This document shows positions 12,133-60,941 of a stretch of DNA of 64,000 nucleotides, piece after piece. The translations under genes and the position numbers were made by a program. The notes under the pieces are model-generated. The model worked only from the letters and a program-made list of their open reading frames with translations. It was not told the origin of the DNA and ran no database searches. Source of the DNA: an uncultured delta proteobacterium. GTDB taxonomy: Bacteria; Desulfobacterota; RBG-13-43-22. The stretch is taken from assembly GCA_963790475.1 (NCBI GenBank), contig CAWBOS010000011.1, positions 128,001-192,000 of the forward strand, given 5' to 3'. Position 1 is the stretch's first letter. Every line of letters starts with the position of its first letter.

Positions 12133-13047
12133 CTAACCCCGGACATTGTTGTAAACTGTCTTCACCGAAACTCCCAGCCGGTCTGCAATCTCATTTCTTT
12201 TAAATCCTCTGGCTATCAACTGCTCAATTAAGTATTTCCGGGCTTGCCGGCTTTCGGCCTGACCCAGGCGGCTTTTCCGGTTTAGGGTTTCAATCCTTCG
12301 AGATAATTCCTCGCTATCCAATAGGTCGATCCCCTTCGGGTTTCTCAACCGGCCCAGGGTGATTCCATTCCAAACGGTTGGAACCAACCTTTTCAGCTTT
12401 TCCTGCAGTCGGTTGATGGCCCCTTCCACCTCCAGGACTTCGTCTACTTTCAAGCCGGAAGCTTGCTGCAAGAGTAGCTTATAGGTCCGTCGGGCAGTGG
12501 CGTAATTGTCCGAAATCAACCCCAGGATAAACGAGCTGTCGACAAAAGAGTTGGCCGTCATCCTATCACTATACAATCGGTCGGAAGACCAGCGATAGGC
12601 ATCGGGGCTTGCGGCCAGGCCGGCTCGGACAGGGTTCAGATGAATATAAACGGAGGCGGCCAGCAGGTATTTCTCATCCATACAAACCGATTGTCGGTAG
12701 GGGCTCCCAAAAAGATGGCCTTTTCTTTCATATTTTCGGTTAAAGTATCGGGCATATCGGGAGAAGAGATCCCGCATGGCCCCGTAGAGGTTGTCCTGCT
12801 GGGGACTGATCAGTAGATGGACATGGTTGGGCATGAAGCAGAAGGCATAGAGGACGACCTCTGCCTGTTGAACCCAGTCTTTCAGCCAGCCGAGCAGGAA
12901 CAGATAATCCTGATCCTCGACAAACAGCGGTTCCCGACCGGCAGCACGTTGGGTAATGTGGGAGACCAATTGGGCCTGGTTGAGTTTCCGGGTGGACCGG
13001 AAGAAGCGACTCTTCCCACTCCGTTTACTAATATCCTCCAAAGCCAT
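12133..13047 (-). CDS. REP-associated tyrosine transposase (RAYT, Y1/HUH) with C-terminal HTH
   Basis: HITQR, MPNHVHLL (HUH), YFNRKYERKGHLF, YIHLNPVRAGL, YRWSS; EIADRLGVSVKTVYN HTH. Confidence 0.88.
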   Translation of the reverse strand: MALEDISKRSGKSRFFRSTRKLNQAQLVSHITQRAAGREPLFVEDQDYLFLLGWLKDWVQQAEVVLYAFCFMPNHVHLLISPQQDNLYGAMRDLFSRYARYFNRKYERKGHLFGSPYRQSVCMDEKYLLAASVYIHLNPVRAGLAASPDAYRWSSDRLYSDRMTANSFVDSSFILGLISDNYATARRTYKLLLQQASGLKVDEVLEVEGAINRLQEKLKRLVPTVWNGITLGRLRNPKGIDLLDSEELSRRIETLNRKSRLGQAESRQARKYLIEQLIARGFKRNEIADRLGVSVKTVYNNVRG

Positions 13048-48282: not shown

Positions 48283-48413
48283 CAGACCTTTGAAAAAGTC
48301 TCCTATTACGTCATACCGGCGAAAGCCGGTATCCAGAACCAATTAAAAACACTGGATTCCGTGTCAAGCACGGAATGACGAAAAGGAAGTTGGCATAATA
48401 ATTCAAAGGTCTC
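48283..48413. mobile_element. 131-bp MITE with IS5-type ends carrying a palindromic core, TSD ATTCT
   Basis: cagacctttgaa...ttcaaaggtctc; internal gtcataccggcgaaagccggtatccag..ctggattcc. Confidence 0.82.
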
Positions 48414-52357: not shown

Positions 52358-53092
52358 CTAAAGCCTTTTATAAATGAACTTCGGGATGTAATACTGCCGT
52401 TTATTGAAAACCACCCCGATGATCTTCCCCCCATTCTTGATGATCTCTTCTTTGACCTTTAAGGCCACCGGCCAGCGGGTGGTTTCGGCCTCCATGACCA
52501 GGACCACCCCGTCCACCTTTCGGCAAACGGTCAGGGTGTCCTGGGATTCGGTAACTGGGGGTGAATCGATCAGGACGTATTCGAAGAGGCCCTTCAATTG
52601 GTCCATTAGACCGTAGATTTCCGGGGAATCGAAGATCTTCGTCGTCGCCCCGTTATTCCCGGCTATCAGGCTCAGGGCCGGCCGCGATTCTCCCTGCCGG
52701 TAGATGGCCTTTTCTACAGCCAAACCGTTCTTCAGGACTTCTTCCAGATAGTGCCGGGGGGTCACGCCCAGGAACAGATGCTGGGTGGGATGGGATTGGT
52801 CGGCGTCGAGAACCAGCACCGATTTCCCAAACTTTTCGGTAACGACCCGGGAAAACTCCTTGACGATCGTTGAGGTCCCCTCGCCCCGGCAGGAGGCCGC
52901 AAACTGCAGCACCTTATGGCCCCGGTCCGGCAGGGTGTTCTCCAAACCCTGATAGAGGCTGATCATGGACTCCTCGAGGTCGGAACCCGGACCTTGTTTC
53001 GGGTTCGTTTCGTTCCTTATTTCCGGCAGCCGGGTAAATATCCGGGCTTCTTCCCGGGGCTGCTGTTTGAGGGCTTCAAAAATTTTGGTCAT
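52358..53092 (-). CDS. CpsD/CapB-type polysaccharide tyrosine autokinase
   Basis: MTKIFEAL, GEGTST, VLDAD, IDSPP, DGVVLV, GVVFN. Confidence 0.88.
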   Translation of the reverse strand: MTKIFEALKQQPREEARIFTRLPEIRNETNPKQGPGSDLEESMISLYQGLENTLPDRGHKVLQFAASCRGEGTSTIVKEFSRVVTEKFGKSVLVLDADQSHPTQHLFLGVTPRHYLEEVLKNGLAVEKAIYRQGESRPALSLIAGNNGATTKIFDSPEIYGLMDQLKGLFEYVLIDSPPVTESQDTLTVCRKVDGVVLVMEAETTRWPVALKVKEEIIKNGGKIIGVVFNKRQYYIPKFIYKRL

Positions 53093-53305
53093 GGGAACTC
53101 CTTAAATAGGGGTCTTCTCCCAGTTAATTTCCTTTTAAATAAACCCCCGGATTTGCCAGGGGATACCCAAAGTTTGACAATTCCGGGAGCAGGATTGGAC
53201 AATATTCAATAAAGGAGTATTCATTATTTTTCCAATACCCCGTCAGAGATATTTTTCAAAAATGAATTAACCTCTGGATTGTCATTCCGGCGAAAGCCGG
53301 AATCC

Positions 53306-54837
53306 GATATGGCTGACAGTTGTCAAGAGGAAAAGATTTTTCCTGGCCCTAGTAGAGGGTTAGACTGTCAGTTTAATCCAGGGCACAAGCAGAGACGGGA
53401 CCGATTTAGCGACGTTTGATCATTCTGATATTCGCGTATTTTGAACGCCTGACTTGACTTCGTCACAGGAGCTGCCTCGCTCTAGGATCGGAAATTCGGA
53501 TGACCTTATTCCTTGGATTCCTCGAGGATTCTCCCAACGGGGTCGCGTCTCTGCTGGTCCCCTGGATAGGATATAATGGGTGGTCTCTATACTCCTTTAA
53601 GAAGGTTTGTTTTTTGACCTAGGCTACACGTTTCGCAACTGAACTTCCCTGGCAATCGCCCATATGAAGCCGGAGAGCTCGCGGGCGATGGCGGTTACCA
53701 CTTTGGTTTTCATTTTTCCTTGGGCCATAAGCCTACGGAACCGGCCGCAGAGTCTAACCTGGGCCTTCCAGGCGATCTCCCGGATGGGCTGCGGCAGTCC
53801 CTGTTGTCGTTTGAGCAGAAACCTGCTTATCCGGGCCGGATAGCTATAAGCATGCGCCGCTTCAACGAGAACGCGCCTTACGTGGCCATTGCCGGTTTTG
53901 GTGATGCTGCCCCGTTTGACGGACTGGCCGCTGGAGTGTTCCGAGGGAACCAGACCCAGATAGGCCATGAACTGCCGGGGGTTCTCAAAACGAGTGATAT
54001 CGCCGATCTCAGAGACGGTGGTTATAGCCACAGTAGGAGCCACCCCTCTGAGGGCCTGGAGGGCTTCAACCACTGGGGCCAGGCTCCATTGGGGCAACAG
54101 CTTCAGACTCTGGTCAACTAAACGACCGACTCGCAGGGTGCCCTCGTTTACCGTGTGGATATATTCCTGAAGGGTAATCTGCTGGGCGGGGTGGGGCATG
54201 GTGACGTCCGATAGCCAACGCCTATGAGCAGGCGTCCAGGATGTTTTACCGGGGTACCTATGGCCATACCGAAGCAGAAAAGCCCCTAAGTGTTGACGAG
54301 CAGTGCGCAAGGCCTTGACCGCATCTTCCCGGGCGCGGGTCAAATCTCTCATGGCTTCGTCGTCCGGTCGAGGGACATAGACCGGGGTTAACTCCCCGGC
54401 CCGATAAAGCCGGGCCAGTGTCTGGGCATCGCGATGGTCGTTCTTGACTCGGTCGCCGCTCCGTCTGGGAGTCTTCGAGGGGGCAACGACCACACAAGTA
54501 AACCCCTGCGAGGATAGGTGACGGTAAATCTCATAGCCGCATGGCCCAGCTTCATAGACAAAGTGCAGTTCCCTACTGGTGCTTTTGAGTTTTCTGACTG
54601 CTTTGTCCAATGAGGCCATGTCGCCGTTAATTTTTCCGTAATGCCGAACTTCTTCAGTTCCCGTGGTTTCGGCGATTACAATCTCTATGGAATCTTTGTG
54701 TACATCCATACCGACAACTGTGATAAAATGTTTCATGACCTGCCTCCTTATTCTTGGCTCTGTATTGGGATCACTCCCTAATATAACCCACGACGATAAG
54801 GGGCAGGTCGCTTTTTTAATTGTCAGCCATTATGTCT
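53306..54837 (-). mobile_element. IS110-family element of the IS1111 subgroup
   Basis: Subterminal IR atggctgaca 3 nt and 7 nt inside the ends; no TSD; ~318-bp non-coding region downstream of tnp. Confidence 0.88.
53624..54736 (-). CDS. IS110-family transposase/recombinase
   Basis: GMDVHK, YEAG, KNDHRDA (DEDD), GLVPSEHSSG, GSITKTGN. Confidence 0.95.
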   Translation of the reverse strand: MKHFITVVGMDVHKDSIEIVIAETTGTEEVRHYGKINGDMASLDKAVRKLKSTSRELHFVYEAGPCGYEIYRHLSSQGFTCVVVAPSKTPRRSGDRVKNDHRDAQTLARLYRAGELTPVYVPRPDDEAMRDLTRAREDAVKALRTARQHLGAFLLRYGHRYPGKTSWTPAHRRWLSDVTMPHPAQQITLQEYIHTVNEGTLRVGRLVDQSLKLLPQWSLAPVVEALQALRGVAPTVAITTVSEIGDITRFENPRQFMAYLGLVPSEHSSGQSVKRGSITKTGNGHVRRVLVEAAHAYSYPARISRFLLKRQQGLPQPIREIAWKAQVRLCGRFRRLMAQGKMKTKVVTAIARELSGFIWAIAREVQLRNV

Positions 54838-54995
54838 AGAAACTTTCTATAGCCTTGGAAACCCCTGGACCCCGGCTTTCGCCGGGGAGACGTCTTTAAT
54901 GGGTTTGGGCTTTAGTTTTTGAGCCCCTTCGAGGGGCTAATATTTTCAACCCTCCAGCTCTGCCGGAGGTACGGGGACTAGTTGTAATAAAGGAT

Positions 54996-56341
54996 TCAAG
55001 GATTCAAGGGCCTGTTCTTTCCCCCTTTACCTGATTCCTCATTCAGCTCCGGGAAGACGATCGTCTTACCGGCGACGATCCGGTCGAGGTCCTTCAGTCC
55101 GGGGTTTTTCTCCCGGATCAGGCTGATCAGCCGACTCCGGCCGTATTGCCTTATTTCCTGGGGGCTGTATCTTTTCTCGATAAGAGAGTTCAGGGTATCC
55201 CCCTCTTCTATCTGCTGCGCAACCTCCTTGGCCTCGGTCTCCTCTTCCGAAACTTTTCCCGGCGGGGAAGACGCCTCAGGCCGGGCGCTGGTTTTCGGCT
55301 CCTTTGAGACCGTTGGATTCGTCGGCGGCAAAGTGACCGTGGGGGAAGGGGCCGGGAGGACCGGTGCAGCAGGGATCACGGCCACAACCGATTGCCCGGG
55401 ATGATTGTTTTTTTGCCCGAAGGAAGGCAGGTTCCCACGGAAAAAAAATAGCCCGCCGGCCAACAGAAGAACGGCCAGGGCCAGCCCATAGCCCAGGAGC
55501 GGTGTGCGCGCCGGCTTCTTGAATTCCGGCGCTTCCCTTCCTCTGAAATCCTTTATGATTTCCAAGGCAACTCCGATGTCAACGGGTTTCTTCCGATAGC
55601 CGAATCCGGTAATCAGGGCATTATCAAAAAGGATGTTTAAGATTCGGGGAATTCCCTGGGCCTCCTCGATGATCCGATGCAGGGCTTTCCTGGTGAAAAC
55701 GGACTTTTCACTCCCGCCGGCTTTGGCCAGCCGGTGTTTGATATAGGCCTCGCTTTCTTCAAAACTGAAGGGCCCGATGGCCAGGCGAATGAAGATCCGT
55801 TGCTTGAAGGCCCGCAGTTCGTCCCGGTCCAGGATTTCCGCCAATTCGGGCTGACCGATAAGGATAATCTGGATCAGCTTGTCCTTGACGGTTTCCAGGT
55901 TGGAGAGCATGCGCAGATTTTCCAAAGTCTCCACCGGCATGTTCTGGGCCTCGTCGATAATCAGGGCCACATTGATTCCTTGCTGGTAGGCTTCGATAAG
56001 GGCCAGATGGAGGCCGTTCACCAGTTCGGAGAGGTCATCGCTTTCGACCGCCAAACCCAGTTCCTGGTAGATGATCTTGACCAGCGCCGGGAAGGAAAGG
56101 TTCGAGTTAAAAACATAAACCACCTTAAGGGCCGAATCCCGGGATTCCTCCAGGTAGGAGCGAACCATAGTCGTCTTGCCCACGCCCACTTGACCCGTGA
56201 TGACCACACAGCCCTTCCGCTTTTCGATCCCGTAAATGAGAGAGGCCAGGGCCTGCTGGTTCTCTGCCCCCAGGAAAAAAACTCCGGGTCGGGGGTGAGA
56301 TTGAAGGGTTCTTTATGCAGTCCGTAGAACTGGAGATACAT
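54996..56341 (-). pseudogene. ExeA/PrsA-type AAA ATPase with C-terminal LysM-like region; -1 frameshift in a T7 run at ~56278
   Basis: MYLQFYGLHKEPFNLTPDPEF / GQVGVGKTT, IIDEAQ, GQPEL, GIPR..N. Confidence 0.82.
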
Positions 56342-59501: not shown

Positions 59502-60941
59502 TTATCTTCTTACTGTTGAGGTTCTTGCAAATCTCCCAAATTTCGTCACACCGGCGAAAGCCGGTGTCCAGAATGCATTGAAAAGACTGGATTCCGGCTT
59601 TCGCCGGAATGACATCACTGGACTTTTGCAAGAGGCTCTGTTAATACCCATCTTATTTCTGATATTATTACGATGGAATTCTACAGTTCGTCTTGAAATA
59701 TTGATAAGTTGCGCTATCTCTTTAGAATTCTTTCCTTCCCTGATCAAGGTTGCTACAGCCACCTCACTCGGAGTAAAATTCATATGGTTAAACTTTATAG
59801 TTTGTACAAAAGGGGAGGTGATATCTTTTAAATGGGATTTTATGAGGTTAAGATATATATTTTGAACTTCATCCAGGGTTGTAGCTTTCAGTTTCTCGAC
59901 GTAAGGATTTACCATCTCCCGGATATTAGCGGTTATTTCATCCTCAAAGTCTTTCTTGGCCTTTTCTCTCTGTCTGATCAAAACATTCAGCGCCGCATTG
60001 GTTTCTTCGAGATGAACTGTTCTAACCTTTAACTCCTCCTCTCGTTTTCTCAACAAGGCTTCGGCCTCTTTTCGTGTTGTGATGTCACGGGCTATACCCA
60101 GAATCGCATAGGGTTTTTGATCCCTGTAGATAAGGGATACTTTGGTTTCTACATAGACCTGTTTGCTGTCTTTGCATCTTAATTGATATTCCATCAACGC
60201 TCTTTGATAACCTGCCTGTTTAATCTCTTCTACGGATTTCAGGGCTTTGGTGAGCTGGTTTTTGTCGAGGAGAGATGCAAAACTCAATGAAGATATCTCT
60301 TCCCTTTTGTATCCCAGGAGGTCAAGGGCAGCAGGATTGGCGTCTAGGAAATGACCTTCAAAATCGTGGACATATACACAGTCAAAAGAGCGGTTGAACA
60401 GGGCATTGAAGCGTTCTTCTTTCTCCTTGGACTCCTTATCCGCCCGCTTGCGTTCTGTAAGATCTATCCCATAGACAAGATAGGTCGTTCCGAAAGAAAC
60501 CGTCCGGAATTCAATGTCTTTCCGAGAGCCATCTTTGCAGGTAACCACCGTTTCCACCGGCCCAAATACAAATTGAGTGGTCGATCTCTCCAGATACTTT
60601 CTATTCTCCTTCGCCATAACCTCTTTACGATAAGCAGGATCAGGATAAGCCCGTAACCACCAGTGGTCAATATCCGGAATATCATCAACCGAATACCCAA
60701 ACAACCTGGGAAAAATAGGATTTAAAAATTTGGTTTGTGAAGGGGAGCCTTCCAGCAATGCCATGATGAACGGAGATGAGTCCACAAACCTTTTAAAAAG
60801 TTCTTCCGTCTGTTTGGTTTCTTCCAGGGATTTTTCCATTTTTGTAATCTGCCGGCGTGATGCCATAAGTTCATCAATAAGCTCTTCCTTTGTTTTCTCT
60901 TTATCTTTCATGGAAAAATCCTCCTCGTATAAATAAAACAA
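59502..60941 (-). CDS. PAS-PAS-LuxR transcriptional regulator with C-terminus replaced by a MITE
   Basis: PAS motifs, GKNSKEIAQLINISRRTVEFHRNNIRNK; native tail NSKKINLRTCLLSFP* ends at 59470. Confidence 0.85.
   Translation of the reverse strand: MFYLYEEDFSMKDKEKTKEELIDELMASRRQITKMEKSLEETKQTEELFKRFVDSSPFIMALLEGSPSQTKFLNPIFPRLFGYSVDDIPDIDHWWLRAYPDPAYRKEVMAKENRKYLERSTTQFVFGPVETVVTCKDGSRKDIEFRTVSFGTTYLVYGIDLTERKRADKESKEKEERFNALFNRSFDCVYVHDFEGHFLDANPAALDLLGYKREEISSLSFASLLDKNQLTKALKSVEEIKQAGYQRALMEYQLRCKDSKQVYVETKVSLIYRDQKPYAILGIARDITTRKEAEALLRKREEELKVRTVHLEETNAALNVLIRQREKAKKDFEDEITANIREMVNPYVEKLKATTLDEVQNIYLNLIKSHLKDITSPFVQTIKFNHMNFTPSEVAVATLIREGKNSKEIAQLINISRRTVEFHRNNIRNKMGINRASCKSPVMSFRRKPESSLFNAFWTPAFAGVTKFGRFARTSTVRR
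59518..59638. mobile_element. 121-bp MITE with palindromic core, TSD TGTT
   Basis: gaggttcttgcaaa...tttgcaagaggctc; core gtcacaccggcgaaagccggtgtccag..ctggattccggctttcgccggaatgac. Confidence 0.85.

Follow-up and report, generated by a model that had tools for sequence, protein, structure and literature searches.

A 64,000-nucleotide stretch of DNA from an uncultured delta proteobacterium (contig CAWBOS010000011.1, positions 128,001 to 192,000; hereafter the window) was analyzed, and a complete insertion sequence (IS) of 1532 bp, with its gene on the minus strand, was found at positions 53306-54837. It was concluded that the element is very probably an active-looking IS of the IS1111 group, the recombinase of which is guided by an RNA encoded in the element's own right end. 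The anatomy of the element, its specificity for site and orientation, the conserved fold of the RNA and the covariation of guides with both target and donor were observed here. The original prediction had described the locus as a programmable RNA-guided recombinase aimed at a dispersed repeat, and this view gained support from the guide covariation, the conserved fold and a target family of 132 members.

The gene is preceded by 102 nt and followed by 318 nt of non-coding DNA. The latter, called the tail below, holds the RNA features listed here (a slash in a sequence marks the insertion point or a junction):

53378-53565, minus strand: bridge/seek RNA fold with a basal stem, a target-binding stem-loop and a donor-binding stem-loop, based on the z-score and on compensatory pairs
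53514-53521, minus strand: target guide, 5' strand of the target loop, RNA GGAAUCCA, complementary to gene-sense T/GGATTCC
53480-53486, minus strand: target guide, 3' strand of the target loop, RNA CCUAGAG, added in this analysis
53424-53432, minus strand: donor guide, 3' strand of the donor loop, RNA AAUAUCAGA, in which the right end ATATC and the left end AGA form the circle junction
53448-53455, minus strand: tentative candidate for a second donor guide, 5' strand of the donor loop, RNA AAGUCAGG

The 188-nt stretch 53378-53565 was folded on the minus strand with an energy of -74.4 kcal/mol and a z-score of -5.11, and 0/200 shuffles folded as well. A long stem, which had been claimed between 53376-53397 and 53546-53567, was borne out as 53378-53403 paired with 53540-53565. 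In the RNAalifold consensus of 75 distinct homologous stretches (alignment A2), 28 of the 40 pairs showed compensatory changes. The first arm of the consensus (GGAG/CUCC, then CCUCG/CGAGG) enclosed a large loop with a small hairpin, and the second arm (GCGACG/CGUCGC) enclosed a loop with a hairpin, so that a conserved structure with two internal loops, as is characteristic of seekRNAs and bridge RNAs, was present. Paired cells made up 94.8% of the alignment at these columns versus 84.9% in column shuffles (0/500 reached the observed value) and 40-48% when the partners were slid by 1-3 columns. The covariance model R1, built from the consensus, gave exactly three matches in the element's own genome, all within its three copies of the IS. 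Of 21 genomes from the order, 4 had matches, counting that of the window; in each genome, 122 candidates were scored. The model was also matched at full length downstream of distant relatives, namely L013 (94.9 bits), L011 (27.9 bits) and a gene on a Shigella sonnei plasmid (73.1 bits; NZ_CP023646.1). The last was the closest named relative found, with 48.3% identity over residues 8-363, and its name, ISSso6-family, comes from the annotation of the record only.

Relatives were collected by a scan of genome contigs (12 loci, 30-96% identical to the window protein) and by a scan of metagenome contigs (the best 80 of 529 confirmed relatives, 60-96% identical), and the right end was located by its conserved sequence in 69 loci. 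Relatives sit in metagenome-assembled genomes labelled uncultured delta proteobacterium. Their ends were nearly constant (AGACATAATGG... and ...CCATATC), the arms of their subterminal repeats changed jointly (GGCTGACA with TGTCAGCC, GGTTGACA with TGTCAACC, GTCTGTCA with TGACAGAC, and others), and their flanks varied widely.

The original prediction had singled out three short matches of the tail to the target or to the junction of the abutted ends, at 53514, 53424 and 53570, and each was found at its position. On a single sequence such matches were within chance, because 2000 shuffles of the tail gave an 8-nt word common to the tail and the target in 266 cases and a word common to the tail and the junction in 252 (~13% each); the relatives made two of the matches significant. 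The first of these, tggattcc (53514-53521), corresponds to GGAAUCCA in the RNA, which is complementary to the final left-flank base and to the 7 nt after the insertion point. At this position in the relatives, directly after CCUCG and one further base, a 7-nt segment is complementary to right-flank bases +1 to +7. In a set of 66 non-redundant insertions, 45 matched at 7/7 positions, 13 at 6, 4 at 5 and 4 at fewer. When each of 37 target classes was represented once, the mean match was 6.1/7 versus 3.0/7 for mismatched pairs, and the observed sum was reached by 0/10000 permutations; the match to the target was thereby upheld as one that covaries with the insertion site. Complementarity at positions +1 to +7 was recorded in 34/37, 36/37, 34/37, 37/37, 34/37, 28/37 and 23/37 classes, respectively, and dropped to 7/36 at +8, and the next RNA base paired with the last left-flank base in 31/34. 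Elements with 60-96% identical recombinases and the same ends occupy 37 different 7-nt right flanks, the majority of which are not palindromic, and the RNA segment varies with the flank. Insertions sharing the guide of the window's element (relatives and own copies) were found at GGATTCC in 19/21 cases, at AGATTCC in one and at an unrelated sequence in one. It was also observed that the metagenome relative L021 (2381-2765) has the GGAAUCC guide, yet its right end is followed by AGATCAAGTCAG, a 3/7 guide match; this is either an off-target insertion or a rearranged flank.

The second target guide, CCUAGAG, was absent from the original prediction. Within the target loop it occupies the 3' strand and immediately precedes the closing CGAGG. 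Its CCU equals the last bases of the left flank, and AGAG fits the first four bases of the element (AGAC) at three positions; in the relatives either AGAG or AGAC stands there, matching AGAC at three or four positions. Identity of the 3' strand to the left flank was found in 57/64 insertions at position -1, in 60/64 at -2 (0.42 expected) and in 34/64 at -3 (0.26 expected), with none beyond and 0/10000 permutations reaching these values. The AGAN part is a handshake-like extension, which tracked variants of the left end in L042 (AGT), L049 (AGAT), L061 and L064 (AGC) and did not track them in L063, L081 and L087. About 10-11 nt of the target are read in all, split unevenly between the strands, and this split agrees with only CT or CCT being conserved on the left-flank side of the site. 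The target loop thus holds segments that are complementary to both target strands and covary with them, as is typical of a seekRNA.

In the second loop, the sequence AAUAUC-AGA, i.e., the right end joined to the left end, was present in all relatives. The claimed junction match tctgatat (53424-53431; AUAUCAGA in the RNA) belongs here and proved to be conserved: the right-end variant ATATG was matched by AUAUG in 3/3 elements (L022, L023 and L057), and L019 (...ATATT) kept AUAUC. Similarly, AGC in the RNA accompanied the left end AGC in 3/3 cases. The remaining match, gatataatgg (53570-53579), was rejected as a donor guide, because its position is 5' of the basal stem, beyond the conserved fold, and its sequence is not conserved; a word of at least 7 nt common to the junction occurred there in 2/58 relatives, one being the window itself. 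Facing the left end, AAGUCA was tentatively taken as a candidate second donor guide. It would pair with the left-end bases +6 to +1, and each of the three variants seen at +6 has a Watson-Crick partner in the RNA (T/A, G/C in L092 and C/G in L010); in the AGCCAT clade the RNA changes, but not complementarily. Complementarity in the donor loop is therefore well supported for one strand and tentative for the other, and the ends vary little among the relatives. A handshake between the donor loop and the right flank was also considered; some elements have, as the third base after AUAUC, one that fits the flank, and other elements have one that fits the left end. The subterminal repeat was rejected as a sequence read by the RNA, given that the repeat varies and AAGUCAKGCGG, the 5' strand of the donor loop, does not. 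Additionally, a tail segment, ACUGACAGU in RNA sense (53364-53372), can pair with the right subterminal repeat ACUGUCAG (53309-53318); when the whole tail is folded at minimum energy, this pairing closes a second hairpin that follows the guide RNA.

The conserved fold does not account for the whole tail (53306-53377 and 53566-53623 lie outside it). In place of a guide, or in addition to one, the tail could encode a small RNA with a regulatory function, such as control of transposase translation. ISPpu9 carries the RNAs Ssr9 and Asr9, for which such a control has been proposed (PMC12288879). Covariation with the target and with the ends is not expected of a purely regulatory RNA, and this explanation is considered unlikely.

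The element and its target were delimited as follows:

53306-54837, minus strand: complete IS of 1532 bp with no target duplication, based on three copies and on paralogues of the empty site
53281-53305, plus strand: left part of the split palindrome, which resembles a repetitive extragenic palindrome (REP), GTCATTCC-GGCGAAAGCC-GGAATCC; read in gene sense, this part forms the right flank of the target, GGATTCC...
53306-53318, minus strand: right end, a 3-nt extension ATC and the subterminal repeat TGTCAGCCAT, which covaries with its left partner in the relatives
53624-54736, minus strand: transposase/recombinase gene, 370 aa, with DEDD RuvC-like and Transposase_20 domains (PF01548, PF02371, NF033542)
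54821-54837, minus strand: left end, a 7-nt extension AGACATA and the subterminal repeat ATGGCTGACA
54838-54891, plus strand: rest of the target, i.e., AG completing GGAATCC/AG, a 26-nt spacer and an inverted partner palindrome

The IS had originally been placed at 53281-54892. An IS is indeed contained in that span; the remainder is the flanking palindrome and the inverted partner at 54865-54891, which has the variant arms GGGGTCC. The interrupted sequence is GTCATTCCGGCGAAAGCCGGAATCC/.../AGAAAC, the insertion point in the REP-like palindrome being GGAATCC/AG, and the borders hold no ambiguous base. Both borders could be fixed to the base, and a target duplication excluded, because the uninterrupted paralogues of the flanks of both other copies read ...GGAATCC AGG.... 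In gene sense the layout is CCT/AGACATA-ATGGCTGACA ... gene ... TGTCAGCCAT-ATC/GGATTCC. The subterminal inverted repeats (54821-54830 and 53309-53318) are perfect over 10 bp, or 13 bp long with one mismatch, and their claimed spacing of 7 and 3 nt from the ends held true.

The genome contains three copies of the IS, i.e., the one in the window, one identical to it and one with two base changes (T235I and one silent). In all three, the reading frame is intact, and the element occupies the same palindrome point in the same orientation. It was considered that the element might be an inactive relic, its copies having arisen by duplication of larger segments rather than by transposition. The small number of copies fits such a relic, as does the fact that public contigs gave no empty-site read for the locus and no circle, the latter being something contigs are unable to show. 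This explanation was nevertheless judged very unlikely: outside the palindrome the three copies have unrelated flanks, the copies themselves differ by 2 nt at most, uninterrupted paralogues exist for two of the insertion sites, and the element is patchy in the order, as stated above for R1.

The public sequence runs inspected were four, all stored as contigs. Contig joints from 53305 to ~54865 were tried as an empty site and rejected, because other letters stand between the two parts; they represent other REP pairs of the metagenomes. Such palindrome pairs were abundant in public metagenome contigs, with many and diverse spacers.

The recombinase matched PF01548 (DEDD_Tnp_IS110) over residues 8-157 with an E value of 6.2e-20 and PF02371 (Transposase_20) with an E value of 1.9e-23, and it scored 266.9 bits against the profile NF033542, "IS110 family RNA-guided transposase" (cut-off 140). 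Residues D11, E62, D100 and D103 were invariant in the protein alignment (A1). The motif GL-P----S(t)G, as quoted by Siddiquee et al. (2024, PMC11187229), was present as GLVPSEHSSG at residues 261-270, with T at 269 in L012. According to the same paper, the IS1111 family is separated from IS110 by 7/3-nt extensions, by subterminal repeats (usually of 11-13 bp, perfect or nearly so) and by a long downstream non-coding region. Both domains, the repeats, the extensions, the long downstream region and a specificity for site and orientation without duplication were all found here, and at the sequence level the element qualifies as an IS1111-group member of the IS110 family. Transposases of the IS5075 family aligned with the window protein at 28% identity over residues 84-361. 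IS5075 is reportedly a member of the IS1111 family, going by a title of Partridge and Hall from 2003. A second, different IS110-family element was noticed in the same genome in 10 copies with identical DEDD scores of 88.8 bits and an open frame of 428 aa (for example at G000:C11:964-1437, C11:35586-36059 and C11:90802-91275, outside the window), together with four further, more distant DEDD transposase matches.

The target was examined with the pattern GTCAnnCC, 6-16 nt, GGnnTCC, which gave 309 matches in the 6.34-Mb genome. Of these, 132 end in GGAATCCAG, and three sites are occupied by the IS, which agrees with the claim that the target is a dispersed repeat. The 9-mer GGAATCCAG itself occurs 305 times versus 47 expected from composition, and 142 of the 305 stand in the context of the palindrome. 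The palindromes at 48309 and 59544, originally described as uninterrupted members of the same palindrome family, do belong to it; they are arm variants, GGTATCCAG (GGTATCC) and GGTGTCCAG (GGTGTCC), and exact GGAATCCAG members adjoin them on the other strand at 48356-48379 and 59591-59613. Inverted palindrome pairs are thus formed in the window at 48309/48356-48379, 59544/59591-59613 and 53281/54865. The pairs at 48309-48379 and 59544-59613 are ~47 bp apart, each with one GGAATCC arm and one arm variant. A short imperfect palindrome, dispersed in hundreds of copies and often arranged in inverted pairs, is characteristic of a REP, and all of this was observed. Members of the Y1 transposase family PF01797 (Y1_Tnp) had 20 matches in the genome, including sets of 6 and 3 near-identical copies; one match lies inside the window at 12640-12972 (G000:C11:140640-140972, minus strand). 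A REP-associated tyrosine transposase flanked by the repeats was not found at 19 of the 20 Y1_Tnp places, those checked, where no family member occurred within 600 bp. Therefore, the repeat was named REP-like rather than REP.

Among the relatives inserted at GGATTCC or AGATTCC, 10/17 flanks form the REP hairpin. The other 7/17, which consist of truncated repeats or unrelated sequence, form none (-4.4 kcal/mol or weaker by prediction), and the sequence rather than the palindrome seems to be required. It appears that a sequence of ~10 nt, and not the hairpin, is what gets read, and that the palindrome merely supplies many copies of it. Recognition of the REP hairpin by the recombinase through protein-DNA or structural contacts, with the RNA matches coincidental and the tail a structured 3' untranslated region or terminator, would suit a palindromic target, the three local copies in hairpins and the frequency of each 8-nt match among the shuffles, and is most improbable, given that the RNA segment follows the flank over 37 mostly non-palindromic target classes, that the seven flanks just described lack the hairpin and that a scan found no terminator-like site within the element.

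Further, the bases at the point of exchange were compared. The right flank begins with AG, like the element, in 32/37 target classes, so that AG brackets the element on both sides, and the first two bases of the element (AG in gene sense, CT on the other strand) behave as a common crossover core in most relatives. The targets of the REP-targeting clade, to which this element belongs, have GG at these positions, and AA stands there in five other target classes. In the target loop, the 5' strand follows the bases of the target itself (CC here), and the AG of the donor is retained on the 3' strand. Insertions with the GGAAUCC guide numbered 21, of which 19 had AG at the left junction and GG at the right, one had AG at both and one was at an unrelated sequence. 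The 19 junctions are those expected from the exchange of one strand only, and the single AG/AG insertion carries the other form. Recombination products have been described as bearing an unligated, partly mismatched bottom strand (PMC13626964), so the top strand would fix the outcome, in agreement with the 19/21 junctions. It is possible, if rather doubtful, that natural recombination takes place here across a mismatched donor/target core. If true, the ends would be left unlike each other after insertion, which could bias the element against re-excision.

Two further sites concern expression of the element:

53321-53326, minus strand: TTGACA, -35 half of a predicted circle-junction promoter, both hexamers being present in 52/60 relatives
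54829-54834, minus strand: CATAAT, -10 half of the predicted junction promoter

A sigma-70-like promoter was not found by a scan of the integrated element. The abutted ends would form TTGACA-N18-CATAAT, a predicted promoter with 11/12 consensus positions, and a promoter formed at the circle junction is a known arrangement (PMC11187229, PMC12288879).

Transcription and processing of the RNA, its binding by the protein, the circle and the chemistry were modeled on published IS1111 and IS621 work. We proposed that the element would excise as a circle with its ends abutted, the donor junction then reading ...CCATATC/AGACAT..., and that the abutted ends would assemble a strong promoter reading through the recombinase gene into the tail. 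The tail would fold into an RNA of ~190 nt with two internal loops. In the target loop, the 5' strand (GGAAUCC-A) would pair with T/GGATTCC on the gene-sense strand. The 3' strand of this loop (CCU, then AGAG) would pair with the other DNA strand at the left flank ...CCT and, once strands have been exchanged, with the element's first bases. The donor loop would contribute AAUAUC-AGA and probably AAGUCA facing the left end. Strand exchange would be carried out by the recombinase with its DEDD domain and the serine of GL-P----SG, and the element would land in one orientation, without duplication, at the 3' edge of the REP-like palindrome, of which more than 130 suitable copies exist in the genome.

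Several results weigh against guidance of the recombinase by this RNA. Eight of the 66 insertions match the target guide at no more than 5/7 positions, one of them with a one-base shift of register. AGC in the RNA also occurs in four elements with the left end AGA, and the second donor guide pairs at 4/6 positions with covariation at one position only. The relatives are not independent, so the shuffle counts overstate significance, which the analysis by 37 classes lessens and does not remove. The Rfam scan of 52800-55300 gave no match at E values up to 1, leaving no curated family against which to check the fold. Contigs of a relative from RNA libraries span 53504-53759 as well as parts of the gene, and such contigs cannot show a transcript; likewise, a joint from the left end back to the right end, i.e., a circle, was unseen in contigs, which could not have shown one.

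Among known systems, ISPa11 of Pseudomonas aeruginosa is an IS1111-family element, the seekRNA of which co-purifies with the protein (Siddiquee et al. 2024, PMC11187229). By its published description it resembles the window's element in being IS1111-type, in REP targets, in subterminal repeats with 7/3-nt extensions and in a non-coding region downstream of the gene that gives an RNA with the top-strand match placed first, 5' of the bottom-strand one. It differs in host lineage and in the REP used, and the element here is known from sequence alone. The order of the two matches is general for IS1111 seekRNAs and the reverse of that in IS110 types (PMC11187229); the RNA in the window, with the guide to the gene-sense strand first and the guide to the other strand second, follows the IS1111 order. 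ISEc11 and ISXne4, IS1111-family elements with natural and experimental reprogramming, provide examples of natural redirection, in which the stem is conserved and the target-matching bases are exchanged (PMC11187229), and the clade of the window's element shows this 37 times; ISEc11, in contrast, has a linear non-repeat target and a protein of 339 aa versus 370 aa here.

IS621, an IS110-group element with a REP target in E. coli, has an RNA with two loops, one for the target and one for the donor; both strands around a 2-nt core are read by each loop, and one guide is followed by handshake bases (PMC11208160, PMC11208158). These traits are shared by the window's element, tentatively so for the second donor strand, as are the REP target and, by prediction here, the circle-junction promoter. 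Read on the opposite strand, the window RNA has the IS621 order, i.e., a left guide including the core, a right guide including the core, and handshake bases. The core of the element is CT on the strand opposite the gene, as in IS621, and AG in gene sense, as at the ISPpu9 termini (PMC12288879). However, unlike in IS621, the RNA is encoded downstream of the gene and not upstream, the element has long subterminal repeats, the short-side target guide is only 2-3 nt, and the target core of the clade (CC on the opposite strand) is unlike the donor core CT.

The element itself is ordinary, because RNA-guided DEDD recombinases have been in print since 2024 and REP-targeting members are known; it is a natural example of the mechanism described in 2024, and the mechanism is not new. 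Its value lies in the data, namely one conserved protein and RNA scaffold at 37 natural targets. They yield rules for the subfamily, in which 7 nt plus one are read on one strand and 2-3 nt on the other, followed by a 3-4-nt extension matching the first bases of the element, and natural examples in which the crossover bases of the target differ from those of the donor. Such data could help to design bridge recombinases of the IS1111 type and to annotate RNAs of this kind, which Rfam did not recognise here.

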